Source: a virus
Lineage: Duplodnaviria; Heunggongvirae; Uroviricota; Caudoviricetes
Length of the DNA: 28,326 nt
IMG/VR virus record: IMGVR_UViG_2529292734_000016
Strand: one strand, 5' to 3'
Under the pieces are notes generated by a model. The model was not told the DNA's origin, did no database searches, and saw only the letters and a program-made list of their open reading frames with translations. Positions 3,971 to 28,326 of this stretch are shown here, in pieces (within the stretch, counting starts at the first letter, position 1; the number at the start of each line of letters is the position of its first letter). The position numbers and the translations under genes were made by a program.

Positions 3971-4002
3971 TTTTTTTTGCAAATCACAAAGTCCATTTAA
4001 TG

Positions 4003-4026: not shown

Positions 4027-4032
4027 CAATAA

Positions 4033-5086: not shown

Positions 5087-5231
5087 TACCGCGTGCGATT
5101 GGGTTAAGCCTATCTATCTTACTGACCACGATATTTCCGCTATGGATAAACAGATGAAGCGCGACATCCTGACGCATAACAAAACATGGCAGTCGAACTG
5201 TTTGAAGGGAGAAACTGAAATGAAGCAGTAA
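5001..5231 (+). CDS. Putative small lipoprotein
   Basis: Signal peptide with lipobox-like LIVSC; GAAAGAGG 6 nt upstream of the ATG; overlaps the 3' end of the preceding gene in another frame. Confidence 0.45.
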   Translation: MYSRVLTICLATMLIVSCATTGPAPVVVDTACDWVKPIYLTDHDISAMDKQMKRDILTHNKTWQSNCLKGETEMKQ

Positions 5232-5512
5232 AGCGGACAGACCGCCCTTACAAGCCGCAGTCATGATGCTACCCCGAGTCTCAATGAGAGCCAGATGCAG
5301 GTCCAAACTGCAATACGCGCTGGTGAGGGTTAACGAAGAAAAAGGCGTACCGGTACTCCAGAGCGATCGCCAGTCGCTCACCGGTTAGAGGTGAGGGATT
5401 CATGAGATACCCCTGACTACAGACTCAAGGGCATGAGCGCGGCCACTGCGAGAGTGTGGTTTATAACCGCTAAAAAATTTATACTCCATGGGCATTGAGC
5501 ATGGAGGGTTGA

Positions 5513-13199: not shown

Positions 13200-13756
13200 A
13201 ACTGACGCCTGTTATTGCTGCGCTGCGTGCCCGCTGCCCGTATTTTGAAAACCGGGTGGCAGGCGCGGCACAGTTCAAAAATCTGCCGGAGGTCGGAAAG
13301 CTGAGACTCCCGGCGGCGTATGTGGTACCGGGTGATGACTCTCCGGGAGAAAACAAAAGCCAGACCGACTACTGGCAGGAGCTGAAAGAGGGCTTCTCCG
13401 TGGTTGTCATACTGAGTAACGGGCGTGATGAGCGCGGTCAGTTTGCCTCGTATGATGTGGTGGACGATGTCCGGCAGATGCTCTTTAAGGCTCTGCTGGG
13501 CTGGAACCCGGAAGCGTGCGGTAACCCGATTACCTATGACGGCGGCACGCTGCTGGATCTGAATCGTCATGAGCTGATTTATCAGTTTGATTTTTCGGTC
13601 ATCAGCGAGCTGACCGAAGACGATACCCGCCAGCAGGATGACCTGAACAGTCTGGATGAACTGCGAACGCTGGCGATTGATGTTGATTATCTCGATCCCG
13701 GTAACGGGCCTGACGGCGATATCGAACATCACACCGAAATAACCCTTCCTTCCTGA
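13196..13756 (+). CDS. Tail terminator-like protein (Mu-like tail module)
   Basis: ATGA overlap with the upstream gene; position immediately before the small ORF and sheath gene, as in Mu-like tail clusters. Confidence 0.45.
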   Translation: MKLTPVIAALRARCPYFENRVAGAAQFKNLPEVGKLRLPAAYVVPGDDSPGENKSQTDYWQELKEGFSVVVILSNGRDERGQFASYDVVDDVRQMLFKALLGWNPEACGNPITYDGGTLLDLNRHELIYQFDFSVISELTEDDTRQQDDLNSLDELRTLAIDVDYLDPGNGPDGDIEHHTEITLPS

Positions 13757-13764
13757 GAATCTTC

Positions 13765-13935
13765 ATGTTTGTCAAACCTGTTAAAGGGCGGTCAGTTCCT
13801 GACCCTGCCCGCGGCGACCTTTTGCCCGCCGAAGGGCGAAATGTTGACGAGAACAACTACTGGCTGCGCCGTGAAGCAGCGGGTGATATCCGGCGCGTGA
13901 ATAAAAAGGTGAATACCGATGACGATGAGCTTTAA
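13765..13935 (+). CDS. Small protein (56 aa) upstream of the sheath gene, DUF2635-like by position
   Basis: Own translation: MFVKPVKGRSVPDPARGDLLPAEGRNVDENNYWLRREAAGDIRRVNKKVNTDDDEL; overlaps the sheath start. Below the ORF-track length cut-off. Confidence 0.35.
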   Translation: MFVKPVKGRSVPDPARGDLLPAEGRNVDENNYWLRREAAGDIRRVNKKVNTDDDEL

Positions 13936-15415
13936 CACCATTCCGTCGAATACGCTGGTTCCGATTTTTTATGCGGAAATGGATAACCAGGCGGCGAATA
14001 CTGCACAGGATAGCGGAGCATCGCTGCTGATTGGTCATGCCAATAACGGTGCAGAGATTGTTGCCAACAGTCTGGTGCTGATGCCATCGGCAGACTATGC
14101 ACGCCAGATTTGTGGTGCGGGAAGTCAGCTGGCGCGTATGGTCGAGGCTTATCGCCAGACCGACCCGTTTGGTGAGCTGTATGTGATTGCCGTTCCGGAA
14201 GCCACAGGCGCGGCGGCAACGGTTACGCTGACGGTGACCGGGGAAGCAACCGAAAGCGGCACGGTGAATGTCTATGTGGGACGTACCCGCGTGCAGGCTC
14301 CGGTGACCAACGGCGATAACGTCACGACGATTGCCAGCAGTATCAAAGATGCCATCAATGCCGTTCCGGCCCTGCCGTTTACGGCTTCATCTTCGGCAGG
14401 TGTGGTCACACTGACCGCGCGTCATAAGGGGCTTTGCGGGAATGAAATTCCTGTCAGCCTCAATTACTACGGCTTTGGTGGGGGCGAAGTGCTGCCAGCG
14501 GGCGTACAGATTGCCGTGGCGACGGGTACCGCCGGAACGGGTGCTCCGGTTCTCACCGGCGCGGTGGCTGCAATGGCGGATGAGCCGTTTGATTATATCG
14601 GCCTGCCGTTCAACGACACGGCCTCCGTTAACACGCTGGTGACCGAGATGAACGATACCAGCGGTCGCTGGAGCTATGCGCGTCAGCTGTATGGTCATGT
14701 GTATACGGCAAAGATCGGCACGCTGTCAGAACTGGTGACCGCAGGTGACCAGTTTAACCAGCAGCACATTACCCTGGCGGGGTACGAAAAAGAGACCCAG
14801 ACGCCTGCCGACGAACTGGCGGCAAGCCGTACCGCCCGCGCAGCGGTGTTTATTCGCAACGATCCGGCACGTCCCACGCAGACCGGTGAGCTGGTGGGTA
14901 TGCTGCCTGCGCCGAAGGGGAAACGGTTCACGATGACCGAACAACAGACCCTGCTGTCTCATGGCGTGGCAACGGCGTATGTCGAAAGCGGGGTACTGCG
15001 CATTCAGCGTGATGTCACCACGTACAGGAAAAACGCTTACGGGGTTGCGGATAACAGCTACCTCGACAGTGAGACACTGCATACCAGCGCGTATGTACTG
15101 CGCAAACTGAAATCCGTCATTACCAGTAAGTACGGGCGTCACAAGCTTGCCAGTGACGGTACCCGCTTTGGTCCCGGTCAGGCGATTGTCACCCCGGCGG
15201 TGATCAAAGGGGAACTGCTGGCAACCTACCGTCAGCTTGAGCGTGCGGGGATCGTGGAAAACTACGAACTGTTTAAGCAGTACCTGGTTGTGGAGCGTGA
15301 TGCCAGCGATCCGAACCGCCTGAACACGCTGTTCCCGCCTGACTATGTTAACCAGTTGCGTGTCTTTGCCGTGGTTAACCAGTTCCGTCTTCAGTATTCA
15401 GAGGAGTCTGCATAA
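13919..15415 (+). CDS. Tail sheath protein (Mu gpL-like)
   Basis: 498-aa protein followed by tube, chaperone and tape-measure genes; AAGGTG 7 nt upstream of the ATG. Confidence 0.85.
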   Translation: MTMSFNTIPSNTLVPIFYAEMDNQAANTAQDSGASLLIGHANNGAEIVANSLVLMPSADYARQICGAGSQLARMVEAYRQTDPFGELYVIAVPEATGAAATVTLTVTGEATESGTVNVYVGRTRVQAPVTNGDNVTTIASSIKDAINAVPALPFTASSSAGVVTLTARHKGLCGNEIPVSLNYYGFGGGEVLPAGVQIAVATGTAGTGAPVLTGAVAAMADEPFDYIGLPFNDTASVNTLVTEMNDTSGRWSYARQLYGHVYTAKIGTLSELVTAGDQFNQQHITLAGYEKETQTPADELAASRTARAAVFIRNDPARPTQTGELVGMLPAPKGKRFTMTEQQTLLSHGVATAYVESGVLRIQRDVTTYRKNAYGVADNSYLDSETLHTSAYVLRKLKSVITSKYGRHKLASDGTRFGPGQAIVTPAVIKGELLATYRQLERAGIVENYELFKQYLVVERDASDPNRLNTLFPPDYVNQLRVFAVVNQFRLQYSEESA

Positions 15416-15771
15416 TGGCCCGTATCGGGGGAACCTGTTATTTCAAAATTGACGGTCAACAGCTATCGCTGACCGGCGGCATTGAGGTGCCCATGAACAG
15501 GACGGTCAATGATGACATCATCGGCCTGGACGGTTCAGTGGACCGCAAGGAAACTCACCGTGCGCCTTATGTCAAAGGGACCTTCAAGGTGCCGAAGAAT
15601 TTTCCGGTGAGCAAAATCACCTCGTCTGATGAGATGACCATCACTGCCGAGCTGGCGAACGGTCAGGTCTATGTATTGTCGTCCGCCTGGCTGCACGGCG
15701 AAGCGAACCATAATGCCGAAGAAGGCACGGTTGATCTTGAGTTCCACGGTGAAGAAGGGGATTACCAGTAA
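15415..15771 (+). CDS. Tail tube protein (Mu gpM-like)
   Basis: 118-aa protein directly after the sheath gene, with a TAATG stop/start overlap. Confidence 0.8.
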   Translation: MARIGGTCYFKIDGQQLSLTGGIEVPMNRTVNDDIIGLDGSVDRKETHRAPYVKGTFKVPKNFPVSKITSSDEMTITAELANGQVYVLSSAWLHGEANHNAEEGTVDLEFHGEEGDYQ

Positions 15772-16040
15772 TGAAAGAGCTTGAGTTAAAGAAACCGATT
15801 ATCGCTCATGGTGAGACACTCTCCGTACTGGAGTTTGATGAGCCCACCGGGAAGGATGTCCGCGAGCTGGGGTATCCCTACCAGATGAATCAGGATGAGT
15901 CAGTCAAACTTCTGGCGCATGTGGTGTCGAAATACATTGTGCGGCTGGCGAAAGTGCCGCAAAGCTCTGTCGACCAGATGTCTCCGGCAGACCTGAATGC
16001 AGCGGCGTGGCTTGTGGCTGGTTTTTTCCTCCAGGCCTGA
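15771..16040 (+). CDS. Tail assembly chaperone, short form
   Basis: Small acidic protein between tube and tape measure; contains the slippery site near its 3' end. Confidence 0.7.
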   Translation: MKELELKKPIIAHGETLSVLEFDEPTGKDVRELGYPYQMNQDESVKLLAHVVSKYIVRLAKVPQSSVDQMSPADLNAAAWLVAGFFLQA

Positions 16041-16189
16041 CGGCTGAATACCTCACTGATCGCTTCTTTGACTGCGCCAGCTACTGGCGCATTAATCCTT
16101 TCGAATTGCTGAATATGCCGATCAGTGAAATTCCCTTACTGGTCAGTCAGGCAAACAGGATAGAGCAGGAGAAACGCACACATGGCTGA
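15771..16189 (+). CDS. Tail assembly chaperone, predicted -1 frameshift extended form
   Basis: The -1 frame after the slippery heptamer is open to 16189 and matches the 16007..16189 ORF from FFPPGLTAEYL onward. Confidence 0.5.
16022..16028 (+). promoter_or_regulatory. Programmed -1 ribosomal frameshift slippery heptamer T_TTT_TTC
   Basis: Zero-frame codons are ttt (16023-25) and ttc (16026-28), preceded by t at 16022. Confidence 0.55.
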
Positions 16190-18014
16190 ATTTGAGCTTA
16201 AGGCGTTGATCACCGGTGTCGACAGGCTTTCTCCCGCGCTGTCGAAAATGCAAAAGAAAATCCGGGGATTTAAACGCCAGGCGGAAGAAGCGTCACAGGG
16301 TGGGCTGGCGCTTGGTGGCGGACTGGCAGCGGGTCTGACGCTTTCCCTGAAATCTTATGCCGATCAGGAAAACGCCGCCACCGGGCTGAAAGTCGCCATG
16401 ATGGATGCGAATGGCGAGGTTGGAAAGAGCTTTCAGGACATCAATAAACTGGCTATTGGCCTGGGTAACCAGCTACCCGGTACAACGGCTGATTTCCAGA
16501 ACATGATGCAGATGCTGGTGCGTCAGGGGATCCCGGCAGAAAACATTCTGGGTGGTGTGGGTAAAGCAACAGCTTATCTTGCGGTACAACTGAAAAAAAC
16601 ACCGGAAGCGGCTGCTGAGTTTGCTGCAAAGATGCAGGATGCTACCGGAACGGCGTCAGAAGACATGATGGGGCTGTTCGACACTATCCAGAAGGCGTTT
16701 TATCTGGGCGTTGACGATACCAACATGTTGTCCTTCTTCACTAAAACCAGCTCTGTTCTGAAGATGGTGAACAAGGATGGTCTTCAGGCTGCACAGAGCC
16801 TTGCCCCCATCAGCGTCATGATGGATCAGATGGGGATGAACGGGGAGTCGGCAGGTAATGCCCTGCGAAAAGTTATCCAGTCCGGATTAAGCGTTAAGAA
16901 AATCAGGGACGTTAATAAAGTTATGGCCCGCCAGAAACTCGGGGTACAGCTCGATTTTACTGACGGCAAAGGAAGTTTTGGCGGTCTTGATAACATGTTC
17001 AGGCAACTGGCAAAGCTGCGAAAACTGACCGACGTTAAGCGAACAGGTGTACTTAAGGCAATATTTGGTGATGATGCCGAAACCCTTCAGGTGGTCAATG
17101 CACTAATCGATAAAGGAAAGGATGGCTACGATCAGATCCAGCAGAAGATGAATAAACAGGCCAGCCTGAATAAACGTGTTCAGGCACAGCTTGGTACGCT
17201 GTCCAACCTGTGGGAGGCAATGACAGGGACCGCAACTAACGGCCTTGCGGCTATTGGCGGCGCATTTTCTGGTGACGCTAAAAATATCACACAATGGCTG
17301 GGGGAGTTGGGGGAGAAATTCACGAAGTTTGCGGATGAAAATCCCCGGGTTATTCGCGGCGTCGTCGGGCTTGCTGCCGGTCTTGCGATTCTGAAACTGG
17401 GATTGATGGGCGTGGGCAGTGCCATCAGTATTGTCAGCAGGATTATGTCGATGACGCCGATTGGCATGATTGCGACGGCGATTGCTCTGGCTGCGGGATT
17501 AATTATCACTAACTGGGATGTTGTCGGACCTTATTTCAAGAAGCTCTGGGAAACCATTGGTCCTTATTTTGAGGCAGGTTGGGAACTTCTGAAGAAGGTT
17601 TTTGCCTGGTCGCCGCTTGGGATGGTGATCAATAACTGGGGACCGGTTGTTAAGTGGTTTCAGGATATGTGGGATAAGCTGAAGCCGATTATTGAATGGT
17701 TTACCGACAGTTCCGGTGACACGGTCGATGCCATTAACTCGGCGCAGTGGGGCGCGGGTGCTTATGATGCTTATGGGACGGGAATACCGCCACGGGGATA
17801 CACTCCTTATCCGGTAGTGGATCCGGCTCAGGCAAACAACGCCTCCGATGCCACAGGCTCGAATCCCTTCATGATTAACAAAGCTTCTGTGCCAAAAGTT
17901 GATGGTGAGATCAAGGTATCTTTTGTGAATTCGCCTCCGGGTATGCGGGTTATGGAAACGCGATCCAGCGGTTTTGATGTCAGCCATGATGTTGGCTATA
18001 CGCGGTTCAGGTAG
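16182..18014 (+). CDS. Tail tape measure protein
   Basis: 610-aa protein with a Gly/Ala-rich hydrophobic segment, located after the chaperone pair. Confidence 0.85.
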   Translation: MAEFELKALITGVDRLSPALSKMQKKIRGFKRQAEEASQGGLALGGGLAAGLTLSLKSYADQENAATGLKVAMMDANGEVGKSFQDINKLAIGLGNQLPGTTADFQNMMQMLVRQGIPAENILGGVGKATAYLAVQLKKTPEAAAEFAAKMQDATGTASEDMMGLFDTIQKAFYLGVDDTNMLSFFTKTSSVLKMVNKDGLQAAQSLAPISVMMDQMGMNGESAGNALRKVIQSGLSVKKIRDVNKVMARQKLGVQLDFTDGKGSFGGLDNMFRQLAKLRKLTDVKRTGVLKAIFGDDAETLQVVNALIDKGKDGYDQIQQKMNKQASLNKRVQAQLGTLSNLWEAMTGTATNGLAAIGGAFSGDAKNITQWLGELGEKFTKFADENPRVIRGVVGLAAGLAILKLGLMGVGSAISIVSRIMSMTPIGMIATAIALAAGLIITNWDVVGPYFKKLWETIGPYFEAGWELLKKVFAWSPLGMVINNWGPVVKWFQDMWDKLKPIIEWFTDSSGDTVDAINSAQWGAGAYDAYGTGIPPRGYTPYPVVDPAQANNASDATGSNPFMINKASVPKVDGEIKVSFVNSPPGMRVMETRSSGFDVSHDVGYTRFR

Positions 18015-18113
18015 TGTACAAAATGATTAATGTGTTTTTGTCTGGCATAATTTGGGTTTTCAGCTTTAAGTAGTTAATATAATCATTCCTTACAAATGAT
18101 TGAAGGGATGATT

Positions 18114-18608
18114 ATGCGTATCTTTGTTTTTTTTATATCTGCACTTTTATCTTTTAACTTGGCCGCGGAGGAGTGTAAGTTCAGCTTTAATGAGTCAGAA
18201 TTAATCTCTTCTATAGGTATTGCACCAGTTAAGCAAGAGATAATAAAGGATGAAGGAATAACTAAGCGGCAATATGAATTCAGAAGAGAATTATCTTCTG
18301 AAGAAATGCTTAGTGATGACGCTGATGAAAAATATGAGCCGCAGTTTTATATATCTGTTTATAATCCATCATGCCCACAAAAGGTTATTGTTTGGTTTTT
18401 CAAAGACAATAAAAACACAATGGATTTAAGTAATGAGGTCCTTGCTGGTAGAGCGTTCAAGTATTTAACTGGTGTTAATGAAAGTATTTTTGAAAATAAA
18501 ATGAAAAAGTTTTTAAAGGTACAGTCATTTGAATCTTTTGATGAAAGGACAGATTCTAAATTTATAAAGAGTGGTGATATTTATTCCATTGATGTTCAAC
18601 TCAGATAG
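18114..18608 (+). CDS. Secreted hypothetical protein in an AT-rich moron-like cassette
   Basis: ATG at 18114 with GAAGGGA upstream; Sec-type signal peptide (MRIFVFFISALLSFNLA/AEEC); visibly AT-rich, Lys/Glu/Asn-rich coding region unlike the flanking tail genes. Confidence 0.55.
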   Translation: MRIFVFFISALLSFNLAAEECKFSFNESELISSIGIAPVKQEIIKDEGITKRQYEFRRELSSEEMLSDDADEKYEPQFYISVYNPSCPQKVIVWFFKDNKNTMDLSNEVLAGRAFKYLTGVNESIFENKMKKFLKVQSFESFDERTDSKFIKSGDIYSIDVQLR

Positions 18609-18627
18609 TAATTAAAAATATTAGGTT

Positions 18628-18685
18628 CCCGCCACATCTTCTGCGATGTAAATAACTGACAAAGCAGATTTGGCGGGTTTTTTGT
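18628..18685 (+). terminator. Putative terminator after the secreted-protein cassette
   Basis: CCCGCC ... GGCGGG stem with a long structured loop, followed by TTTTTTT. Confidence 0.35.
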
Positions 18686-18698
18686 ATCCGGAGTTTAT

Positions 18699-20027
18699 AT
18701 GACGTGGAAAGACAGGCTTCAGGATGCGTCATTTCGCGGCGTACCGTTTAAGGTTGAAGAAGAAAGTGCGGGAACCGGTCGCCGTGTGGAAACACATGAA
18801 TACCCGAACCGCGACAAGCCCTATACCGAAGATCTGGGAAAAGTCACTTTCCGCCCGTCCATCACAGCTTATGTGGTGGGAGATGACTGCTTTGACCAGC
18901 GCGATCGCCTGATTGAAGCGCTGAATAAACCCGGTCCCGGCACGCTTGTCCACCCGACATATGGTGAGCTGAAAGTCTGTGTTGACGGGGAAGTTCGGGT
19001 CAGCACATCGAAGAGTGAAGGGCGTATTGTCCGCTTTGACCTGAAGTTTGTCGAAGCAGGAGAACTCTCTTACCCCACATCAGGTGCGGCGACGGCGCAG
19101 ACGCTGATGTCATCCTGTTCTGCACTGGATGACTGCATCAGTGACAGCTTCAGCGGTTTCAGTATCGATGGTGTGGCGGATTTCGTGCAGAACGACGTTA
19201 TCGGTAATGCCAGCATAATGCTGGGGTATGTTTCTGATGCGATGAAAGTGGTGGATTCTGCCGTATCGGATGCCGCCAGGCTGTTGCAGGGGGATATCTC
19301 GGTACTTCTGCCGCCGCCATCGTCAGGCAAAAATTTCGTTGAGCAGGTGCAGAAAATGTGGCGTACCGGGAAACGCCTTTATGGTAACGCCAGCGACCTG
19401 GTCACCATGATCAAAACGCTTTCCGGTGTCAGCCTCGGCAGCGATCTGCAACCGCGCGGCGTCTGGAAAACGGACAGTAAAACCACCGCCACGGCGACGC
19501 AGCAGCGTAACGTGGTTGCCAGCACCCTTCGTACGACCGCAATCAGCGAAGCGGCGTATGCCGTCACCCGATTGCCTGCGCCAACAACTTCCGCGGTGAT
19601 GCAGAATTCCGCAGTGGGGCAGGCAACAACACCTGCGCAGAGCACTGGCTGGCCTTCCGTCACGCATCCGGCACTGAACAATGCACCGGCGGTGAAAAAC
19701 ACAGTTGACCTGCCGACGTGGGAAGAACTGACTGACATTCGCGACACACTGAATACGGCAATTGATAAGGAGTTGTCCCGTACAACCAGTGATGCGCTGT
19801 TTCTGGCGCTGCGCCGGGTGAAAGCAGATCTGAATGCGGATATCAACACGCGCCTTGAACAGTCTGCACGGATCATTCAGCGCACGCCGGATGAGGTTTT
19901 ACCCGCGCTGGTGCTGGCGGCGACCTGGTTTGATAACGCGGCGCGTGATGCGGACATTATCCGGCGTAATGCCATTACGCATCCCGGCTTTGTGCCGGTG
20001 ATCCCTCTGAAGGTGCCAGTGCAATGA
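18699..20027 (+). CDS. DNA circulation protein (Mu gpN-like)
   Basis: N-terminal WKDRLQDASFRGVPF motif and position after the tape measure. Confidence 0.75.
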   Translation: MTWKDRLQDASFRGVPFKVEEESAGTGRRVETHEYPNRDKPYTEDLGKVTFRPSITAYVVGDDCFDQRDRLIEALNKPGPGTLVHPTYGELKVCVDGEVRVSTSKSEGRIVRFDLKFVEAGELSYPTSGAATAQTLMSSCSALDDCISDSFSGFSIDGVADFVQNDVIGNASIMLGYVSDAMKVVDSAVSDAARLLQGDISVLLPPPSSGKNFVEQVQKMWRTGKRLYGNASDLVTMIKTLSGVSLGSDLQPRGVWKTDSKTTATATQQRNVVASTLRTTAISEAAYAVTRLPAPTTSAVMQNSAVGQATTPAQSTGWPSVTHPALNNAPAVKNTVDLPTWEELTDIRDTLNTAIDKELSRTTSDALFLALRRVKADLNADINTRLEQSARIIQRTPDEVLPALVLAATWFDNAARDADIIRRNAITHPGFVPVIPLKVPVQ

Positions 20028-21103
20028 ACGACAATGTCACGCTACGGGTAAATGGCCGGGAGTGGAATGGCTGGACATCGGTGCGCATCGGTGCCGGTAT
20101 TGAACGGCTGGCGCGGGATTTCAGTGTGGAGATCACTCGCCAGTGGCCGGGAGATGAGGGTATCACCACGCTTCAGCCGCGCATTAAAAACGGTTCAAAA
20201 GTGGAGGTGCTGATTGGTGATGAGCTGGTGATCACCGGCTGGGTGGAGGCGACGCCCGTTCGTTACGATGCCCGTTCGGTCAGCACCGGTATTGCCGGAC
20301 GCAGTCTGACCGCTGACCTGATTGACTGTGCAGCCGAACCGACACAGTTTAACGGACGATCGCTGGTACAGATAGCGCAGGCGCTTGCTGCGCCTTTCGG
20401 CATTGAGGTGGTGAACAACGGTGCGCCGTCGGGTGTTATTCCTGACGTCCAGCCCGATCACGGCGAAACGGTGATTGAGGTGATCAACAAAATACTCGGT
20501 CAGCAGCAGGCACTGGCTTACGACGACCCGCACGGCAGGCTGGTGATTGGCGGTATTGGCTCAACGCGGGCACATACCGCGCTGGTACTCGGGGAAAACA
20601 TCCTTTCCTGCGATACGGAGAAGAGTATCCGGGAGCGGTTTTCTGTTTACCAGGTGGCGGGGCAGCGTGCCGGAAACGACGATGATTTCGGTGAGGCCAC
20701 CACCACCGCGCTGCGGGCCCGCACAGAGGACGCATTTATTGCCCGTTACCGTCCGATGTATATCAGGCAGACAGGGCAGGCCACGGGGGCAGGCTGTATT
20801 GCGCGTGCTGACTTTGAAGCCCGACAACGGGCGGCGCGGACGGATGAAACCACCTATGTGGTGCAGGGCTGGCGACAGGGTAACGGTACGCTGTGGCAGC
20901 CCAACCAGCGGGTGATTGTCTTCGATCCGGTCTGTGGTTTCGACAATACCGAACTGCTTGTTTCGGAAGTCACGTTTACTCAGGACCAGAACGGCACCCT
21001 GACGGAAATCCGTGTCGGCCCACCAGATGCTTATCTGCCTGAACCCGAAGCCCCCGGCGCGCGGAAAAAGAAAAAAGCCAGAGTACAGGAGGACCCGTTC
21101 TGA
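20024..21103 (+). CDS. Baseplate hub / tail protein (Mu gpP-like)
   Basis: 359-aa protein in the conserved Mu-like order, with ATGA overlap to the upstream gene. Confidence 0.75.
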   Translation: MNDNVTLRVNGREWNGWTSVRIGAGIERLARDFSVEITRQWPGDEGITTLQPRIKNGSKVEVLIGDELVITGWVEATPVRYDARSVSTGIAGRSLTADLIDCAAEPTQFNGRSLVQIAQALAAPFGIEVVNNGAPSGVIPDVQPDHGETVIEVINKILGQQQALAYDDPHGRLVIGGIGSTRAHTALVLGENILSCDTEKSIRERFSVYQVAGQRAGNDDDFGEATTTALRARTEDAFIARYRPMYIRQTGQATGAGCIARADFEARQRAARTDETTYVVQGWRQGNGTLWQPNQRVIVFDPVCGFDNTELLVSEVTFTQDQNGTLTEIRVGPPDAYLPEPEAPGARKKKKARVQEDPF

Positions 21104-21651
21104 TGAGGACGATTGAAGCCATGCAGCGACAACTCCTCGGCCTGATTGGGCGGGCAGTGGTGAAAAGCATCAGTGCCGCCACGAAATGTCAGACCGTGGA
21201 TGTGTCTCTGATTGCCGGTGAACCCAAAGCCGGGGTTGAACATCTTGAACCCTACGGTTTTACCTCAAGGGCAAACAGCGGTGCGGAAGCGGTGGTGTTG
21301 TTTCCGGATGGCGACCGTTCTCATGCGGTGGTTGTTACGGTGTCGGACCGGCGCTACCGCCTGAAAGGGCTGCAGACGGGTGAGGTGGCTGTCTATGACG
21401 ATCAGGGGCAGTCCGTGACGCTGACCCGGGAGGGGATCGTGGTGGACGGTGCAGGTAAAACGATCACGTTTCGCAATGCACCTGAAGCACGTTTTGAAAT
21501 GGACCTGGAAGTGACAGGACAGGTGAAAGACCTGTGCGACTCCGGCGGCACTACCATGTCAGCGATGCGGCTTGCCTATAACGGGCATCGTCACAGAGAG
21601 AACGGTCAGGGCAGTAACACCGACAAACCTGATAAAGCGATGGAGGCATGA
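21103..21651 (+). CDS. Baseplate assembly protein V / spike (Mu gp45-like)
   Basis: 182-aa protein in the conserved Mu-like baseplate position. Confidence 0.7.
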   Translation: MRTIEAMQRQLLGLIGRAVVKSISAATKCQTVDVSLIAGEPKAGVEHLEPYGFTSRANSGAEAVVLFPDGDRSHAVVVTVSDRRYRLKGLQTGEVAVYDDQGQSVTLTREGIVVDGAGKTITFRNAPEARFEMDLEVTGQVKDLCDSGGTTMSAMRLAYNGHRHRENGQGSNTDKPDKAMEA

Positions 21652-22076
21652 TGGAACTGTGGCTGACGGTGAACGGTAAACGCACCTGCGCCAGCGCACC
21701 GCTGGATCCGCTGATCCGCGCCGTGGTGATTTCCCTGTTTACCTGGCGGCGGGCGGAGCCTGATGACAACGCCGACGTCCCGATGGGATGGTGGGGGGAT
21801 ACCTGGCCTGCGGTACAGAATGACCGTTACGGCTCCCGGCTGTGGCTGCTTCAGCGCAGCAAACTGACCAATCAGCTGGTGCAGACGGTAAGGGGGTATA
21901 TCCGCGAATGCCTGCAATGGATGATTGATGACGGTGTGGTGTCCCGTATTGATCTGGATATCCGCCGCACCGGGATTAATGAACTGGGTAACAGTATCAC
22001 TCTCTGGCGTCGTGACGGACCGGTAATGATTTCTTTTGATGATCTGTGGAGTGCGATAACGCATGGCGGACAGTGA
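21651..22076 (+). CDS. Baseplate wedge protein (Mu gp46-like / GPW-gp25 family)
   Basis: Start chosen at ATG 21651 (GGAGG 4 nt upstream); conserved position before the baseplate J gene. Confidence 0.7.
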   Translation: MELWLTVNGKRTCASAPLDPLIRAVVISLFTWRRAEPDDNADVPMGWWGDTWPAVQNDRYGSRLWLLQRSKLTNQLVQTVRGYIRECLQWMIDDGVVSRIDLDIRRTGINELGNSITLWRRDGPVMISFDDLWSAITHGGQ

Positions 22077-23121
22077 ATTTCAGCGTCCGACGCTGGCAGA
22101 AAATATCAGTATGCTCCGTAACGATTTATTCGCCAGGCTGGACGTCAGCGATACGCTCCGGCGCATGGATGAAGACGTGCGGGCAAAGGTGTATGCGGCG
22201 GCGCTGCATACGGTTTACGGGTACATCGATTATCTGGCAATGAATATGCTGCCTGACCTGTGCGATGAGTCCTGGCTGGCGCGACATGCTGCGATGAAAC
22301 GGTGTCCGCGCAAGGGGGCCACGGCTGCCAGCGGGTATATGCGTTGGGAAGGTGTCAGCGATGGCCTGAAGGTGACCGCCGGGAGTGTTATTCAGCGCGA
22401 TGACCTGGTTCAGTACACGGCAACTGCCGATGCAACCAGCTCCGGTGGTGTCCTGCGCGTGCCGATCGCCTGCTCAAGTGCAGGAGCGGTCGGTAACGCT
22501 GACGACGGTACGTCATTAATCCTGGTCACGCCGGTTAATGGTCTGCCGTCTTCCGGCGTGGCAGATACCCTGACAGGCGGATTTGATACTGAAGAGCTGG
22601 AAACGTGGCGCGCCCGCGTCATTGAGCGGTATTACTGGACGCCGCAGGGCGGGGCTGACGGGGACTATGTCGTCTGGGCTAAAGAAGTGCCCGGCATTAC
22701 CCGCGCATGGACATACCGTCACTGGATGGGAACGGGAACTGTCGGTGTGATGATTGCCGGCAGTGACCTGATTAATCCCATTCCGGAAGAATCAACGGAA
22801 ACGGCGGCAAGACAACACATTGAGCCACTGGCCCCGGTGGCAGGCTCTGATTTGTATGTGTTCAGGCCGGTGGCGCATACGGTGGATTTTCATATCCGCG
22901 TGACGCCGGACACACCGGAAATACGGGCTGCCATCACCGCCGAGTTGCGTTCGTTCCTGCTGCGTGATGGTTATCCGCAGGGAGAACTGAAGGTGTCACG
23001 TATCAGTGAAGCGATTTCCGGTGCGAACGGGGAATACAGCCATCAGTTGCTTGCACCGGTGGACAATATCTCCATTGCGAAAAACGAACTGGCGGTTCTG
23101 GGGACGATTTCATGGACGTGA
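22063..23121 (+). CDS. Baseplate J-like protein (Mu gp47-like)
   Basis: 352-aa protein in the baseplate J position. Confidence 0.8.
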
Positions 23122-23696
23122 CAAACGATGATTACATCCGTCTGTTGTCGGCACTGCTGCCGCCCGGTCCGGCGTGGTCAGCCAGCGATCCGGCGATTGC
23201 AGGTGCGGCACCGTCATTAACCCGTGTTCATCAGCGTGCGGATGCCCTGATGCGGGAGCTGGATCCGCGCACCACCACCGAACTGATAAACCGCTGGGAG
23301 CGTCTGTGCGGCCTGCCGGATGAATGTATTCCCGCAGGGACACAGACCCTTCGCCAGCGTCAGCAACGGCTGGATGCGAAGGTTAACCTGGCGGGCGGCA
23401 TCAACGAGGATTTTTATCTTGCACAGCTTGCTGCCCTGGGCAGACCAGATGCCACCATCACGCGATACGACAAAAGCACCTTCACCTGCTCATCGGCCTG
23501 TACTGACGCGGTGAATGCGCCGGAATGGCGGTATTACTGGCAGGTCAACATGCCAGCTGCCACCAACACCACCTGGATGACATGTGGTGATCCCTGTGAT
23601 TCCGCACTGCGTATCTGGGGCGACACCGTTGTCGAGTGTGTGCTTAACAAACTCTGCCCTTCGCATACCTACGTAATTTTTAAATATCCGGAGTAA
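23112..23696 (+). CDS. Tail protein, Mu gp48-like (DUF2313 / YmfQ-like)
   Basis: 194-aa protein following baseplate J, with the Cys-rich C-terminal region typical of this family. Confidence 0.75.
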
Positions 23697-23699
23697 TCC

Positions 23700-24170
23700 A
23701 TGCATCGTATAGACACGAAAACCGCGCAGAAGGATAAGTTCGGCGCGGGTAAGAACGGTTTTACCCGTGGTAACCCCCAGACCGGCACGCCTGCCACCGA
23801 TCTGGATGATGACTACTTTGACATGTTGCAGGAAGAACTCTGCAGCGTGGTGGAGGCATCCGGTGCCAGCCTGGAGAAGGGGCGGCACGATCAGCTTCTT
23901 ACCGCGCTTCGTGCGCTGCTGTTAAGCCGCAAGAATCCGTTTGGCGATATCAAATCGGATGGCACTGTGCAAACGGCTCTCGAAAACCTGGGAATGACAG
24001 ACATTCTGAATGATAAACAGGATAAAAATGATAATCTGACATCATTGTCGAGCTTAACAGGAATACCGGATGGGCTGGCATTTTTTACAGGTGCCAGAAC
24101 AATGGATATGACAGCGCTGACTCAAAATGGCAGGGAAATTTTAAGTAAAAAAACGTATCGGAAACTCTAA
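23700..24170 (+). CDS. Tail fibre protein, N-terminal baseplate-attachment part (short, possibly truncated by recombination)
   Basis: N-terminus [26 protein letters not shown] resembles side-tail-fibre N-termini; composition turns AT-rich at about 23990 and the ORF stops after 156 aa. Confidence 0.55.
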
Positions 24171-24205
24171 AATATTTAACACTTGGGGATGGAACAGGAA
24201 GGCTT

Positions 24206-24799
24206 TTGGGGGTTCAGGCATTTGGATCATCTGGGACTTATATCAAATCACCTGATGTAACGAAAATTATAGTGGAAGCCGTTGGCGGAGGTGGTGCCAG
24301 TGGTAATTTGTCGGCAACTGCATCTGGTAACTGTGGTGTAAGTGCTGCCGGTTCCAACGGGGCATATGCTAAAGCATTTTTTTATCAGTCTATACCTGAA
24401 TCCGTGCAAGTAACTATTGGAAGCGGTGGTGTAGCAGGAACAGGACCAGGAGGCTCTGGAGGTGACGGCGGGAATACAAGCTTTGGTGATTTGCTTGTAT
24501 GTCCGGGAGGAAGGGGATCAACTCAAGTTCAGCAGGTACCTCCATTTTCAGGGGGAAGTGCAACAGAAGCACCAATTCCTACAGGGCAAGGGATTCTGTT
24601 CCATTCAGTTTCACGATCAAATTTATGTGGGGCACTTGGACTTGGTGATGATCAGGCGATTGGCGTTGAAAGTATAACCACTACTATGCTTGGGATATAC
24701 GGTATTGGCGGGACAGGTAAATACAATAAGGCGTCATCAGGTCCAGCGACAGGAAATAATGGAAATCAGGGATATATTCTTGTGTGGGAGTATCAGTAA
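24206..24799 (+). CDS. Glycine-rich putative tail-fibre distal / receptor-binding protein
   Basis: TTG start (no in-frame ATG before it; in-frame stop at 24146-24148); Gly/Ser/Ala-rich runs (GGGGASGN, GSGGVAGTGPGGSGGDGGN); AT-rich region. Confidence 0.45.
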   Translation: MGVQAFGSSGTYIKSPDVTKIIVEAVGGGGASGNLSATASGNCGVSAAGSNGAYAKAFFYQSIPESVQVTIGSGGVAGTGPGGSGGDGGNTSFGDLLVCPGGRGSTQVQQVPPFSGGSATEAPIPTGQGILFHSVSRSNLCGALGLGDDQAIGVESITTTMLGIYGIGGTGKYNKASSGPATGNNGNQGYILVWEYQ

Positions 24800-25005
24800 T
24801 GAGCGATATTTATGCAGTCGTACAAAATGGTGTCGTTACAAATCTTGTTGTATGGGATGGTAAGTCAGAGTTTAAGCCAGAAAAAGCGGATATGGTTAAA
24901 TGTGTTGGAGATGTTGGTATTGGCTGGTCATATGACGGTGAAAAATTCATTAAGCCTTCCTTAAAACCAGATGTAGTTACTCCTCAAGATGAGTTAGTCA
25001 GTTAA
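24799..25005 (+). CDS. Small hypothetical protein coupled to the Gly-rich gene (possible fibre accessory protein)
   Basis: TAATG stop/start overlap at 24797-24801; 68-aa product; followed by a terminator. Confidence 0.35.
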   Translation: MSDIYAVVQNGVVTNLVVWDGKSEFKPEKADMVKCVGDVGIGWSYDGEKFIKPSLKPDVVTPQDELVS

Positions 25006-25014
25006 TTGCTAGTA

Positions 25015-25049
25015 CGCTGGAGATTTTGATAATTTCCAGCGCATTTTTC
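25015..25049 (+). terminator. Intrinsic terminator ending the late operon
   Basis: CGCTGGA ... TCCAGCG stem followed by CATTTTTCC. Confidence 0.45.
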
Positions 25050-25416
25050 CTTCTGCAGTAATGGATGAAATACCGCGAGTATAATGTTTTTATGCATATG
25101 AACCGTTTAAACCAGAGGAATCCTGACGAAATTGGTTATTGCGCCGAGAGTTGTCGGAGGGGGTGATATAGGTTATCTAATGGAGTAATCATTTTAACAT
25201 TAATCAGTTTCCCCATGACATCCTCTAAACCCTATATAAACGATTTCCTGCTACTGGCATTCAAACGAAATAATTTGAAAGCAATTTAAAGAGTTATTTG
25301 TCTAATGTTGGAAGCCGCAGCCACGTCGTATGCAAGAACGTGCTGCGGCTGGCTGGCGAACTTTCGATAGTGCGAGTATTGAATGATTTCCAGCCGTTAC
25401 CGATTTTACGTGTTAA

Positions 25417-25665
25417 TTAGTGAACAAACCACTCGTCAGCAGATTCCCAGGTATCTTTCAGAGTCTCCTGAACAAAAGTTTTTGCAGAATCCTTATCTGC
25501 GGTGCGTGTAACAGAAAGGCTATCGTTGCTGGTGGCTTTTACGATCACCTCTACATCGTCATAACGTTTACTGATGCGTCGGGTTAATTCTTCCTTTAAC
25601 GCATCCACAGCACCGGTTGGCATTTTAGTCATTTTTTCTTTGGCTATGCAGATTTCAATACGCAT
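25417..25665 (-). CDS. DinI-like DNA-damage-inducible protein (prophage-encoded)
   Basis: 82-aa product starting MRIE and ending [10 protein letters not shown], a DinI-family signature; GAGGGA RBS; LexA boxes in its upstream region. Confidence 0.8.
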
Positions 25666-25678
25666 AAAAGTCCCTCTA

Positions 25679-25698
25679 TACTGTGTTTGTATACAGTA
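25679..25698 (-). promoter_or_regulatory. LexA box (SOS operator) 1: TACTGTGTTTGTATACAGTA
   Basis: Exact CTGT-N8-ACAG with consensus flanks, 14 bp upstream of the DinI-like start codon. Confidence 0.7.
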
Positions 25699-25706
25699 TT
25701 ATTTTT

Positions 25707-25726
25707 AACTGTATGGATAAACAGTG
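25707..25726 (-). promoter_or_regulatory. LexA box 2: AACTGTATGGATAAACAGTG
   Basis: Second CTGT-N8-ACAG palindrome 8 bp from box 1, abutting the integrase stop codon. Confidence 0.6.
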
Positions 25727-26824
25727 TCAAGAGGTCTTATTTCTGCTCCTTTGGAGCTCTTCAAAACGATTATGTAAAGATTTCGGATACAGTTCGGTAT
25801 ATACCTGCCATAGCACGTTTAATGAACGATGCCCTGTAACCTGGGCGACTTCCTCAATACTAAAACCAGCCTCAAATAAGCGACTTGCCCCTTCTCTACG
25901 CAAATCATGGTATCGCAGATCCTTAATACCTAATTTGCTTCTTACCCTCTGAAATCCCGCAGTAACAGAAGTGCTGTTATATGGAAAAATGAATTCCGAT
26001 TTTTGGGGCTGTCGTTGGACGATATCCCAGGCTTCCCCAAGCAAGGCTACTTTCATGTGGTTGCCTTCCTTTTTGCGTGGGTCTTTCCTGTCTCTTACGA
26101 GTATAGATTTTTGTTCCTGGTCGAGATCTTCCCATCGTAACCGGCATACTTCTCCGATTCGCATACAGGACCACACAGAAAATTTGAGGATATCAACGAA
26201 CGGAATTTTTGAGCATTTATGAGTAGATCGTTGTTGAAGGCCTTCAATGAGCAGGTCCAGTTCATCAGATGCTGGTCTACGATTACGACGGTTTGATTTA
26301 CCAATCAAACCAAGTTTAAGTAGATATGGACGAGCACTTTTCGCCGGGTTTGATGTGTAATTAATTCCGTATACAGGTTTGGCCGCATCCAGAACACTGC
26401 CAAGATAACTAACATCGTGGCTGACTGTTGCTGGACCTGCGCCAGCGTTGTTTCTTAGCCTGCAATGTTCAATTACGTCATTTTCTGTCAGTTCAGATAG
26501 TTTGATCGCGGATATGTCACTATCCATAAGCAGTTCCAGCACATATCTTTTAGTACGGCCTGCTTTACCTCCGGCATTTGGGTCATTTAAATATTTGTGT
26601 AGTAAGTCACGGACTGTAAGTCCGTCAACTGCATTTGATGATGGAATGCCATATAGATCTAATTCCATCACTTTCTGTGTGCCCCATGTTTTGGCATGAG
26701 CATGTTTAGGGAATGTTTTGCTTTCCCTGTAAGTGATAACACCTTTTTCTTTGATAATCACATTACAGCGATAGCGTGGTGTGCCATCGGATTTTAGTCG
26801 TTTCTCTATGTTATAGTACGCCAT
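25727..26824 (-). CDS. Tyrosine-type site-specific integrase
   Basis: 365-aa protein whose C-terminal region has the spaced Arg/His/Tyr catalytic pattern (RIGE...HDLRR...Y) of phage integrases; divergent from and adjacent to dusA. Confidence 0.9.
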   Translation of the reverse strand: MAYYNIEKRLKSDGTPRYRCNVIIKEKGVITYRESKTFPKHAHAKTWGTQKVMELDLYGIPSSNAVDGLTVRDLLHKYLNDPNAGGKAGRTKRYVLELLMDSDISAIKLSELTENDVIEHCRLRNNAGAGPATVSHDVSYLGSVLDAAKPVYGINYTSNPAKSARPYLLKLGLIGKSNRRNRRPASDELDLLIEGLQQRSTHKCSKIPFVDILKFSVWSCMRIGEVCRLRWEDLDQEQKSILVRDRKDPRKKEGNHMKVALLGEAWDIVQRQPQKSEFIFPYNSTSVTAGFQRVRSKLGIKDLRYHDLRREGASRLFEAGFSIEEVAQVTGHRSLNVLWQVYTELYPKSLHNRFEELQRSRNKTS

Positions 26825-26912
26825 TACACGACCTCGTTATTTCGGGTTCCCATAAAACGTGGGAACCTGTGCGGGAACCTAACGCGAGAAAAATAGCCTG
26901 AAATGTTCAAAA

Positions 26913-27950
26913 ATGCACGATAATCATGAAACACAAAAAATTAATCAAACCAGCGTGATGCCTGAAAAAACTGGTGTTTACTGGAATTCTCGGTTTAGCA
27001 TTGCTCCTATGCTCGACTGGACGGACAGACATTGCCGCTATTTCTTGCGTCTGCTTTCCCGCAATACGTTGCTGTATACCGAAATGGTGACCACAGGGGC
27101 GATTATTCACGGTAAAGGTGATTACCTGGCGTACAGTGAAGAAGAACATCCGGTAGCGTTGCAACTCGGCGGTAGCGATCCGGCGGCGCTGGCACAGTGT
27201 GCGAAGCTGGCAGAAGCGCGTGGATATGATGAGATCAACCTGAATGTCGGCTGCCCGTCTGACCGGGTGCAGAACGGCATGTTTGGTGCGTGTCTGATGG
27301 GTAATGCGCAGCTGGTTGCCGACTGTGTGAAAGCGATGCGCGATGTGGTGTCGATTCCAGTGACGGTGAAAACGCGTATTGGCATCGATGACCAGGACAG
27401 CTATGAATTTCTCTGCGATTTCATCAACACTGTTTCCGGCAAAGGCGAGTGTGAGATGTTTATCATCCACGCACGTAAAGCCTGGCTTTCGGGGTTAAGC
27501 CCGAAAGAAAACCGTGAAATCCCGCCGCTCGATTATCCGCGTGTGTATCAACTGAAGCGTGACTTTCCGCATCTGACAATGTCGATTAACGGTGGTATCA
27601 AGTCGCTGGAAGAGGCCAAAGCACACCTGCAACATATGGATGGCGTGATGGTCGGGCGCGAGGCGTATCAGAATCCGGGTATTCTGGCGGCGGTAGACCG
27701 GGAGATCTTTGGTTCCTCGGATACCGATGCCGATCCGGTGGCGGTAGTGCGCGCCATGTATCCGTACATTGAGCGTGAACTCAGCCAGGGGACGTATCTC
27801 GGCCATATTACCCGGCATATGCTGGGTTTGTTCCAGGGTATTCCTGGCGCGCGGCAGTGGCGGCGTTATTTAAGTGAAAATGCCCATAAAGCGGGTGCTG
27901 ACATTAACGTGCTGGAACACGCGCTCAAACTGGTGGCGGATAAGCGTTAA
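26913..27950 (+). CDS. dusA: tRNA-dihydrouridine synthase A
   Basis: TIM-barrel Dus motifs ([28 protein letters not shown]); followed by pspG as in enterobacterial chromosomes. The true start may be the internal ATG at 26958 (MPEKTG). Confidence 0.85.
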
Positions 27951-28032
27951 CTTTTCACCAAAAAGTAGTCAAATTCACCACGCCCTGCGCACCGTCGCGG
28001 GGCGTTTTGCTGTTAAATCAATAGATTATTTT

Positions 28033-28047
28033 TGGCATGATTCTTGT
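28033..28047 (+). promoter_or_regulatory. Candidate sigma54 promoter for pspG: TGGCAT-N5-TTGT
   Basis: GG and G spaced 12 nt apart in a -24/-12-like arrangement about 37 nt upstream of the pspG ATG; the -12 element is GT rather than consensus GC. Confidence 0.35.
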
Positions 28048-28083
28048 AATGCCAGCAAGAGATTTCATATTTGGGAGAGCATC

Positions 28084-28326
28084 ATGCTGGAACTACTTTT
28101 TGTGATTGGCTTTTTTGTCATGCTGATGGTCACCGGCGTTTCGTTGCTGGGCATTATCGCCGCGCTGGTTGTGGCGACGGCCATTATGTTCCTCGGCGGT
28201 ATGCTGGCATTGATGATTAAGTTGCTGCCGTGGTTACTACTGGCGATTGCGGTGGTGTGGGTTATTAAGGCGATTAAAGCACCAAAAATGCCGAAATATC
28301 AGCGTTATGACCGCTGGCGTTACTAA
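28084..28326 (+). CDS. pspG: Phage shock protein G
   Basis: 80-aa hydrophobic product (MLELLFVIGFFVMLMVTGVSLLGIIAALVV...) with GGGAGAG upstream; the longer 27874 ORF is a read-through extension. Confidence 0.8.
   Translation: MLELLFVIGFFVMLMVTGVSLLGIIAALVVATAIMFLGGMLALMIKLLPWLLLAIAVVWVIKAIKAPKMPKYQRYDRWRY

Follow-up and report, generated by a model that had tools for sequence, protein, structure and literature searches.

The tail-fibre region of this prophage raises a simple question: does it code for two proteins, a short baseplate adaptor and a separate receptor-binding protein, or for a single fibre that the deposited sequence presents in two pieces? The window, that is, the whole stretch of 28,326 nucleotides that was analysed, is the Escherichia coli DEC14B draft contig AIHL01000081.1. 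An earlier note on this DNA had described a 156-aa fibre ORF, a separate glycine-rich ORF of 197 aa with a TTG start, a coupled 68-aa ORF and a terminator, all of which are present as placed. The features on which the following argument depends are these:

23700..23990, + strand: N-terminal baseplate-anchor module of the StfP/SfV Orf21 type (aa 1-97), from nucleotide and protein alignment.
23700..24170, + strand: 5' part of the tail-fibre gene as read in the window, with an ATG start and 156 aa (ORF list and translation).
23925..24060, + strand: recombination-junction zone (blastn breakpoints and protein alignment).
24147..24153, + strand: A7 homopolymer, the site of a one-base deficit; the A8 of relatives reads Lys-Lys-Asn (direct reading).
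24149..24799, + strand: remainder (3' part) of the fibre gene, read in the -1 frame, with the end of the linker and then, from about 24190, a predicted TNF-like and glycine-rich distal domain (Pfam, phrog_863, PDB profile, Foldseek and dN/dS).
24799..25005, + strand: translationally coupled 68-aa ORF, homologous as a stand-alone protein to the fibre-binding N-terminal domain found in chaperones of tail-fibre assembly; its ATG overlaps the preceding TAA (TAATG).
24957..24971, + strand: right-hand limit of the cassette that relatives share, which falls within the small ORF (blastn matches end at 24957 or 24971 in most loci; alignment).
25015..25050, + strand: intrinsic-terminator-like hairpin closing the late (tail) operon (11-bp stem, 5-nt loop, T-rich tail).

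We found a single cause for the two-ORF appearance. At 24147-24153 the window has seven A residues where the gene needs eight, and because of this A7 in place of A8 the fibre is split into the ORFs 23700-24170 and 24206-24799. Adding one A at the run gives an ORF of 366 aa. As it stands, the product of 23700-24170 consists of 151 native residues, which match the 366-aa proteins of relatives, followed by five out-of-frame residues (TYRKL) and a stop; it matches PHROG tail-fibre families (phrog_1396, E 1.6e-52). The frame of the 197-aa ORF opens at 24149 and contains no ATG until close to its end, and the ORF at 24206-24799 (+ strand, TTG start) is the portion of this -1 frame that lies past the first possible start codon. 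The separate glycine-rich ORF of the earlier note thus exists as a frame with a TTG, but it is half of a fused gene rather than a gene of its own. The note's suggestion of a frameshifted fibre gene proved right, the two ORFs being one gene put out of frame by a single homopolymer base.

The relatives support this view. All 27 of the 27 related loci from other projects (L001-L016, L018-L029) have A8, and in 25 of them the ORF is complete, with 366, 382, 398 or 413 aa; the two others are cut by the contig end (L029) or stop early near it (L028). Likewise, the 12 complete E. coli genomes that carry the cassette all have one more nucleotide over the stretch containing the run. The family phrog_863 spans both halves contiguously. 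Proteins homologous to the glycine-rich part are for the most part 211-413 aa long and nearly all N-terminally extended; the shortest are internal-start or partial calls, and no stand-alone 197-aa family emerged. Moreover, the fused frame has dN/dS values of 0.09-0.31, also for aa 140-170, the segment that covers the run and the apparent intergenic gap; it is thus under purifying selection across the supposed gap. In homologous prophages we found one fused ORF and not the conserved, functional two-ORF pair that the note had set against its own reading.

A gp48 Pfam match on 23112-23696 lies directly 5' of the fibre gene, and the synteny agrees with the order of a Mu gp48-like (YmfQ) gene followed by the fibre. 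On the 3' side, the terminator hairpin (25015-25041) continues after its stem with CATTTTTCCT, and at the corresponding site in SfV a rho-independent terminator is annotated. DinI, a tyrosine integrase and then dusA are found 3' of the fibre genes. Altogether, positions 23700-24799 are the single tail-fibre gene of an SfV/e14-like prophage, with an HK97-type head and a Mu-type tail, integrated beside dusA.

A fibre made of two proteins, namely a 156-aa baseplate adaptor and a separate 197-aa glycine-rich receptor-binding protein started at the TTG at 24206, could draw on the sequence AGGAAGG 3 nt 5' of this TTG and on the listing of the 197-aa ORF by gene callers in A7 assemblies. Yet AGGAAGG codes for the conserved TGRLLG of the fused protein, the gap is under purifying selection as fused-frame coding sequence, and the TTG-started fragment would have neither the anchor nor most of the trimerising linker. 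Outside the A7 drafts, the arrangement occurs in no relative. We regard a two-protein fibre as having next to no chance of being real.

A second reading would make the A run a functional switch, either a phase-variable tract or a programmed -1 frameshift or transcriptional-slippage site, that sets the ratio of a short anchor-only product to the full fibre. The A7 allele does recur on two prophage backgrounds that differ by about 1.1%, and a -1 slip on A7 restores the native frame. Nevertheless, outside the run of neighbouring accessions the tract has the in-frame length, A8, in 27 of 27 loci. The zero-frame codons around it are AGT AAA AAA ACG, with no in-phase X XXY YYZ heptamer; folding of the 91 nt that begin at the run is not more stable than that of shuffled sequences (-9.1 kcal/mol, z = +0.97), and the window gave no Rfam match. 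The out-of-frame tail is only five residues long and its stop is not conserved, being TAC in L002 and L004. Hence, neither the heptamer, nor the downstream structure, nor the conserved out-of-frame arrangement of a programmed -1 ribosomal frameshift was found. A tract of eight A residues is short for efficient slippage or phase variation in E. coli. Among assemblies, A7 occurred solely in records with neighbouring accession numbers, which argues against phase variation, and a literature search on prophage fibres under phase-variable or homopolymer control gave nothing of relevance to enterobacteria. A switch that sets the product ratio is therefore very improbable. Hardly more probable is that the A8 linker tract is a real slippage-prone switch and that lysogen populations are mixed, with the fibre on in A8 genomes and, in A7 genomes, off but leaky owing to -1 slippage; if a switch did operate, the recurrent A7 in three DEC strains would represent real heterogeneity and not sequencing error. 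The two-protein and recoding models were rejected for the reasons given with each.

If the gene is one, how was the A lost? Over 11,705 nt, the SRR254190 assembly differs from the window in nothing but its A8, and it encodes an intact 366-aa protein, P0290, with the window-specific residues R133 and D186. In the assembly of SRR099075, the run is A7 with an extra A at the next A, CGTAATCGG; this A7-plus-AA pattern looks like a flow-sequencing error, typical of pyrosequencing. The only other loci with A7 are AIHA01000044.1, AIHD01000078.1, SRR124115 and SRR125865, whose accession numbers adjoin those of DEC14B, so that A7 is confined to one run of neighbouring accession numbers. The first of these drafts, which has the same sequence as the IMG/VR contig L017, is identical over 6,594 nt to the complete genome of O111:H2 strain 12A (A8) apart from that A. 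Sequence identity and accession numbers together suggest that the A7 records belong to one sequencing project, that SRR254190 and SRR099075 are DEC14B runs, and that the AIHA draft and the complete genome named 12A are from one strain. At other runs of 7-8 bases in the window (e.g., T8 at 18127) the draft and the SRR254190 assembly agree, and therefore any undercalling was not general. In view of the A7-plus-AA pattern, we suspect that the DEC drafts were sequenced with 454 technology. A scan of genome contigs gave no match to the A-run pattern, and scans of viral contigs gave none to the two window-specific substitutions; the R133/D186 allele was recovered through exact-protein look-ups.

A true A8-to-A7 slippage mutation in the DEC14B prophage would make the fibre gene a recent pseudogene. 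Induced particles would then be devoid of the receptor-binding tip, barring rare revertants, and rare -1 slippage at the A run, in translation or in transcription, would recreate the exact wild-type protein, as a -1 shift there yields ...SKKNVSETL..., the same as in the intact protein. The A7 does stand in the deposited sequence, homopolymers are mutational hot spots, and an A8 tract is a plausible site for real slippage. The window allele also has Asp for a nearly invariant glycine (G186) and Arg for G133. Against a mutation, the same R133/D186 allele is intact, with A8, in another read set that is otherwise identical over 11.7 kb, and A7 is seen in three strains with neighbouring accessions but nowhere among 27 other loci. 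One A7 draft differs from a complete genome solely by this A, and the pattern in SRR099075 resembles a flow-sequencing error. We also considered G133R and G186D as decay after inactivation; this idea was rejected, as both occur in the intact A8 allele. The remaining structural genes of the window are all intact, which likewise favours an error. A strain mutation is thus unlikely. We infer that A7 originated in sequencing: an undercall is the most likely explanation because A8 is present in the otherwise identical SRR254190 assembly, A7 is limited to adjoining accessions, and the A7-plus-AA pattern is pyrosequencing-like. We put at about 0.8 the probability that the A was lost through a homopolymer undercall in the DEC14B draft and not by mutation of the strain, and that one gene has been split thereby.

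The repaired gene is a mosaic. Its anchor shows 95-97% nucleotide identity to SfV, SfI, SfII, SfIV and about 1800 E. coli genomes annotated stfP, and its N-terminal ~97 residues lie directly after the Mu gp48-like (YmfQ) gene, as in SfV Orf21 and e14 StfP. This homology ends at query positions 390-406, corresponding to 23989-24005 of the window, and the protein alignment has the same boundary. The AT-rich turn that the earlier note had placed at about 23990 coincides with this point: GC content drops from 0.52-0.56 (windows 23400-23999) to 0.41-0.50 (windows 23850-24899) where the homology to SfV orf21 and e14 stfP stops. A conserved linker motif lies at 23925-23993, and blastn breakpoints fall at 23925 (L002/L014/L021/L023/L024), 23986 (L005/L015) and 24060 (L006/L007/L012/L020). 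From one or other of these points onward, the cassette is shared with three other N-terminal anchor types. Past the right-hand boundary, relatives split into 59-aa and 68-aa C-terminal variants, and the cargo downstream of the cassette varies among them (acyltransferase, GDSL esterase or DinI). The cassette, from ~23925-24060 to ~24957-24971, is a mobile module, joined to at least four different anchors by recombination at conserved motifs of the linker. The recombinational replacement of the distal module that the note had proposed is thereby borne out: after about aa 97, the cassette differs from SfV orf21 and e14 stfP and recurs behind three other anchors.

The note had also seen no inversion system. 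We agree, as no inverted repeats of at least 20 nt are present in 23000-28326 and no serine recombinase was found among the ORFs checked or annotated in the closest complete prophage or in SfV. The adjacent serine invertase and flanking inverted repeats of Gin/Pin/Cin-type invertible tail fibres are accordingly missing here. This is normal for SfV-like phages; SfV itself has no such system.

What does the cassette encode? Residues 10-188 of the 197-aa ORF match the Pfam family Gly_rich_2 (PF21722) with 34 bits against a cut-off of 24.3, and none of the three ORFs has a match in NCBIfam. A profile search of the PDB retrieved the fibre of cyanophage Pam3 (7ypx_A, E 1.1e-4; 7yfw_a, E 4.6e-4; profile positions 95-307). 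In agreement with this, Foldseek on the AF2 model matched the same fibre (7ypx_A, E 1.1e-9, prob 1.0, TMt 0.57), the other top matches being the Bxb1 tail tip and the LTK/ALK TG domain. The whole-fibre model is of moderate confidence (pLDDT 69), with a poorly defined N-terminal half, whereas confidence in the C-terminal domain is moderate to high (means of 52-97 over blocks of 10 residues, most of them at least 76). The fibre has the motif VGGGGASGN, in which G196, G198 and G199 are invariant and G202 nearly so in a 40-sequence alignment; glycines 221, 241, 254, 258, 271, 335, 337, 340, 352, 355 and 358 are also invariant in that alignment. The intact 366-aa product comprises an anchor (~aa 1-97), a helical linker (~aa 98-165) and a distal TNF-like and glycine-rich domain of the Pam3 gp24 kind. 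The anchor, of the StfP/SfV-Orf21 type, presumably docks on the Mu-gp47/gp48-type baseplate wedge, and by analogy with Pam3 gp24 the distal domain may carry the receptor-binding tip.

In every close relative, and in Citrobacter with 49% identity, the 68-aa ORF comes directly after the fibre gene, its start overlapping the fibre stop in the same way. A profile search found 401 representative clusters, the longer members of which carry Caudo_TAP (PF02413) or DUF4376 after this domain. The ORF itself has no Pfam match above threshold, including Caudo_TAP (best DUF5874, 17.5 bits against a cut-off of 27.1), and a sequence-profile search of the PDB gave only two weak, unrelated chains (E 0.12 and 1.5). 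Its AF2 model is of modest confidence, one of five models having reached pLDDT 70. The best Foldseek match of that model is the 162-residue chain 7ypx_a of the Pam3 fibre-chaperone complex (prob 0.99, E 0.12, TMq 0.57); this predicted likeness to Pam3 gp25 is supportive and not decisive. The 68-aa protein is a minimal relative of the N-domain with which Tfa chaperones bind the fibre, and it probably helps the fibre tip to fold.

The two-ORF arrangement is most probably not a biological feature in itself: one homopolymer undercall in an old draft would have produced a convincing false picture of an adaptor plus a separate receptor-binding protein. That SfV-like enterobacterial prophages carry a Pam3-type TNF-like/glycine-rich cassette with a chaperone reduced to the Tfa N-domain is better supported than any switch. 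Within E. coli, exchange of the cassette has involved at least four anchors and two types of baseplate; homologues occur in Citrobacter and Yersinia. A portable Pam3-like glycine-rich fibre tip with its mini-chaperone is modest biology, but useful for predicting or engineering phage receptor-binding proteins. RefSeq divides even the intact gene: one piece is called an 'stfP pseudogene', and the other is left unannotated or called from an internal start as a 'glycine-rich domain-containing protein'. The receptor-binding cassette is therefore easily missed in host-range surveys.

Among known systems, SfV orf21/orf22 and e14 StfP belong to the same prophage type, with gp44-gp48 baseplate genes and near-identical first 97 fibre residues. 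Unlike the window's fibre, SfV Orf21 has 216 aa and an unrelated C-terminus after the ENLG motif, followed by a conventional 167-aa Tfa that the window cassette lacks. In e14 there is in addition an invertible segment with Pin, which is not part of the window cassette. The Gly_rich_2 family PF21722, which corresponds to the NCBI 'glycine-rich domain-containing protein', takes in the C-terminal 190 residues above the gathering threshold and gives the annotation of many homologues, although as a domain-defined family it is silent on function. The gp38 adhesin of Salmonella phage S16 and the TG ectodomain of ALK/LTK share with this fibre stacked glycine-rich motifs that form a lattice under variable distal loops. 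ALK/LTK TG appeared among the Foldseek matches with E 7e-5 to 4e-3 at low TM-scores (~0.2), and S16 gp38 is absent from the matches listed; both are fold analogues rather than close relatives. Pam3 gp24 resembles S16 gp38 (PMC9608196). The Caudo_TAP (PF02413) proteins, such as TfaMu and P2 gpG, differ from the 68-aa ORF in having that domain, but the ORF is homologous to the N-domain of their ~130-aa members and occupies the position of a Tfa gene.

A further comparison is with the tail fibre gp24 of cyanophage Pam3 and its chaperone gp25 (PDB 7YPX, 7YFW), whose domain description has been published (Wei et al., 2022, PMC9608196). Sequence identity is just 22-24%, and the anchor here is of the enterobacterial StfP/SfV type. 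Pam3 gp25 has 162 aa, while the 68 aa of the window correspond only to its beta-sandwich N-domain (residues 1-55), without the helical trimerisation domain. The motif VGGGGASGN is similar, not identical, to the GGGGxGG reported for gp24 (PMC9608196). [quoted passage not shown]

The tail-fibre locus belongs to an SfV/e14-like prophage whose head is of the HK97 type and whose tail, with gp44-gp48 homologues, is of the Mu type. The window is the late region of this prophage, which adjoins dusA, and the remaining structural genes in it are all intact. An earlier note had described here a short fibre ORF, a separate glycine-rich ORF starting with TTG and a small coupled ORF, and we found all three exactly as stated:

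23700-24170, plus strand: 5' fibre ORF, ATG start, 156 aa
24206-24799, plus strand: glycine-rich ORF, TTG start, 197 aa; its frame is open from 24149
24799-25005, plus strand: small ORF, 68 aa; its ATG overlaps the TAA of the preceding ORF
25015-25041: terminator-like hairpin
25417-25665, minus strand: DinI homologue
25727-26824, minus strand: tyrosine integrase
26913-27950: dusA

GC content is about 0.55 before ~23990 and 0.41-0.50 thereafter. The reported lack of an inversion system, which is usual for SfV-like phages, also holds: there is no inverted repeat of at least 20 nt in 23000-28326, and no serine invertase among the other ORFs of the window or in the closest complete prophage.

Several features of the surroundings deserve mention. 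The ~410 nt that separate the late-operon terminator from the DinI gene (25006-25416) are AT-rich, with no ORF of at least 60 aa and no Rfam match; relatives carry cargo at this place, for example an O-antigen-type acyltransferase or a GDSL esterase. In the closest complete relative (L009), the annotation places a dusA fragment (43111-43215) at the opposite end of the prophage, as would fit an integrase that targets dusA and restores its 5' end. Compared with CP066032, the integrase gene has two indels, +1 and -1, separated by 6 nt (26336-26342); they alter the frame over a short stretch only and compensate each other locally, and the integrase is otherwise conserved. A T8 run at 3971-3978, intergenic and immediately following the lysis-gene ORF, is T7 in CP066032; this further difference in homopolymer length has no coding consequence.

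Within the fibre region, the window reads AGT AAAAAAA CG, with seven A residues (A7) at 24147-24153. Adding one A regains a 366-aa ORF, and the first four relatives compared all have eight (A8) and a single continuous ORF. In 12 of 12 complete E. coli genomes with this stretch, the matching segment exceeds the query by one base. A pattern scan tolerating A6 to A9 retrieved 16 viral and 4 metagenome contigs; 19 of these carry A8, the exception being L017 with A7. Altogether, A8 was found in 27 loci, whose single open frames encode 366 aa with the StfP-type N-terminal anchor and 382, 398 or 413 aa with other anchors, except in L029, cut by the contig end, and L028, which ends early near one. The latter (metagenome contig PPYE01759750.1, 9011-9592) has A8, yet its fibre ORF stops after 193 aa with an unrelated tail, and homology to the window ceases at 24239, not far from the contig end; an insertion or a chimeric contig may be the cause. 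In the fused frame, dN/dS is 0.09-0.31, also for residues 140-170, the segment with the A run and the apparent intergenic gap of the window. In databases, most homologues of the glycine-rich part measure 211-413 aa and nearly all have an N-terminal extension, with no family of stand-alone ~200-aa proteins among them, and the PHROG 863 alignment runs contiguously over both ORF halves. Together, the A8 relatives, the restored frame, the dN/dS values, the homologue lengths and this alignment show that a single gene has been divided into the 156-aa and 197-aa ORFs. The frameshifted fibre gene that the earlier note offered as one of its two readings is thus supported. The two separate ORFs, which gave the locus its unusual look, are not a biological arrangement: they stem from a homopolymer discrepancy of one base, in all likelihood a sequencing error. 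The TTG and the upstream AGGAAGG merely spell out codons for a conserved TGRLLG.

A -1 slip on A7 would regenerate the native protein. However, no X XXY YYZ heptamer lies in phase at the run, the downstream RNA folds no better than shuffles (z = +0.97), Rfam gives no match and the run keeps its in-frame length in each of the 27 loci from other sources, which makes a recoding or phase-variation site highly improbable.

The origin of the window bears on the missing base. Exact-protein matches identify its sequence as E. coli DEC14B draft contig AIHL01000081.1. The Logan assembly of SRR254190 equals the window over 11,705 nt (13700-25403) with A8 as the sole difference, and encodes an intact 366-aa protein (P0290) with R133 and D186, otherwise unique to the window. 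Besides the draft contig and the SRR099075 assembly described below, the A7 loci are AIHA01000044.1 (the sequence of L017), AIHD01000078.1, SRR124115 and SRR125865, all with accession numbers neighbouring those of DEC14B, which suggests a single sequencing project. Apart from that A, AIHA01000044.1 shows no difference over 6,594 nt from the complete genome of E. coli O111:H2 strain 12A, where the run is A8. Hence, A7 occurs on two prophage backgrounds ~1.1% apart, is limited to records with neighbouring accession numbers and is twice contradicted by otherwise identical sequence. In the SRR099075 assembly (L036, SRR099075_1286; equivalent to 24147-24158), A7 is followed by CGTAATCGG instead of CGTATCGG: one A is missing from the run and one is surplus at the next A, creating an in-frame TAA. 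This undercall-then-overcall looks like a carry-forward error of pyrosequencing (flow sequencing). At other 7-8-base runs the draft and SRR254190 agree, and therefore any undercalling is not general. Judged from these records, the missing A is probably a homopolymer sequencing error (probability about 0.8), a real slippage mutation being unlikely. Two allele-specific substitutions, G133R and G186D (24096 and 24255), the latter at a nearly invariant residue of the family, were ruled out as signs of decay; because both are present in the intact A8 allele of SRR254190, they are true polymorphisms, in a gene that appears functional.

The intact gene is itself obscured in databases. L001 (3101-4201), L004 and L008, three related loci, have A8 and an intact 366-aa ORF. 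For these and L003 (3101-4201), RefSeq/PGAP labels the gene 'stfP pseudogene, missing C-terminus', covering the first 99 codons, and either leaves the glycine-rich part unannotated or starts a 268-aa 'glycine-rich domain-containing protein' at an internal Met. GenBank originally listed the 366-aa protein (P0283). This labelling looks like a systematic annotation artefact that conceals the putative receptor-binding cassette.

As for the mosaic structure, homology to SfV orf21 and e14 stfP, found in ~1800 E. coli genomes, covers about the first 97 codons and ends at 23989-24005. The cassette beyond recurs behind three other N-terminal anchors, from 23925, 23986 or 24060 on; these anchors occur in prophages that have another wedge protein (DUF2612/Phage_Wedge1) and integrate at other sites. 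These left junctions fall in a conserved motif and in the linker after it. On the right, the shared stretch stops within the small ORF at 24957 or 24971, and the cargo that follows varies by prophage: acyltransferase, GDSL esterase or, in the window, DinI. Because the anchor homology ends where it does and one cassette sits behind several anchors, the proposed recombinational replacement of the distal module is right. Two loci show further variation. In L006 (E. coli TW10590, 2109-3337), an IS3-family element lies between a truncated DUF2612 wedge gene and the fibre gene with the same cassette. L031 (Yersinia enterocolitica, 1636-5403) looks like a prophage remnant adjoining fliE/fliF. It retains only an integrase fragment, a gp48-like gene, an acyltransferase and a 351-aa fibre with a StfP-type anchor, Phage_fiber_2 repeats and a homologous glycine-rich tip; the small downstream ORF is not called.

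The intact gene is an ordinary, if new, representative of an already known kind of fibre. Its ~190 C-terminal residues match Pfam Gly_rich_2 above threshold, and a profile of 40 sequences matches the cyanophage Pam3 fibre, whose structure has been solved (7YPX and 7YFW, E 1e-4). The AlphaFold model has a mean pLDDT of 69, mostly 76-97 in the C-terminal domain, and Foldseek ranks highest its similarity to the Pam3 fibre (E 1.1e-9), to the tail tip of Bxb1 and to the LTK and ALK TNF-like/glycine-rich domains. The 68-aa ORF goes with the cassette in all close relatives, and its Citrobacter counterpart (49% identity) likewise has the stop/start overlap. A profile search over 1.8 billion representative proteins matched 401 clusters, most of them stand-alone proteins of 55-75 aa; in some, of ~130 or ~180 aa, the domain is N-terminal to Caudo_TAP (PF02413) or DUF4376. 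The best match of its model (pLDDT 70) is the 162-residue chaperone chain of the Pam3 complex (prob 0.99, E 0.12, TMq 0.57). In Pam3, the gene next to that of the fibre encodes the chaperone gp25, which grips the tip of the fibre with its N-terminal beta-sandwich, residues 1-55 (PMC9608196). Homology and gene position suggest that the 68-aa product is a minimal fibre chaperone, consisting of the fibre-binding domain alone.
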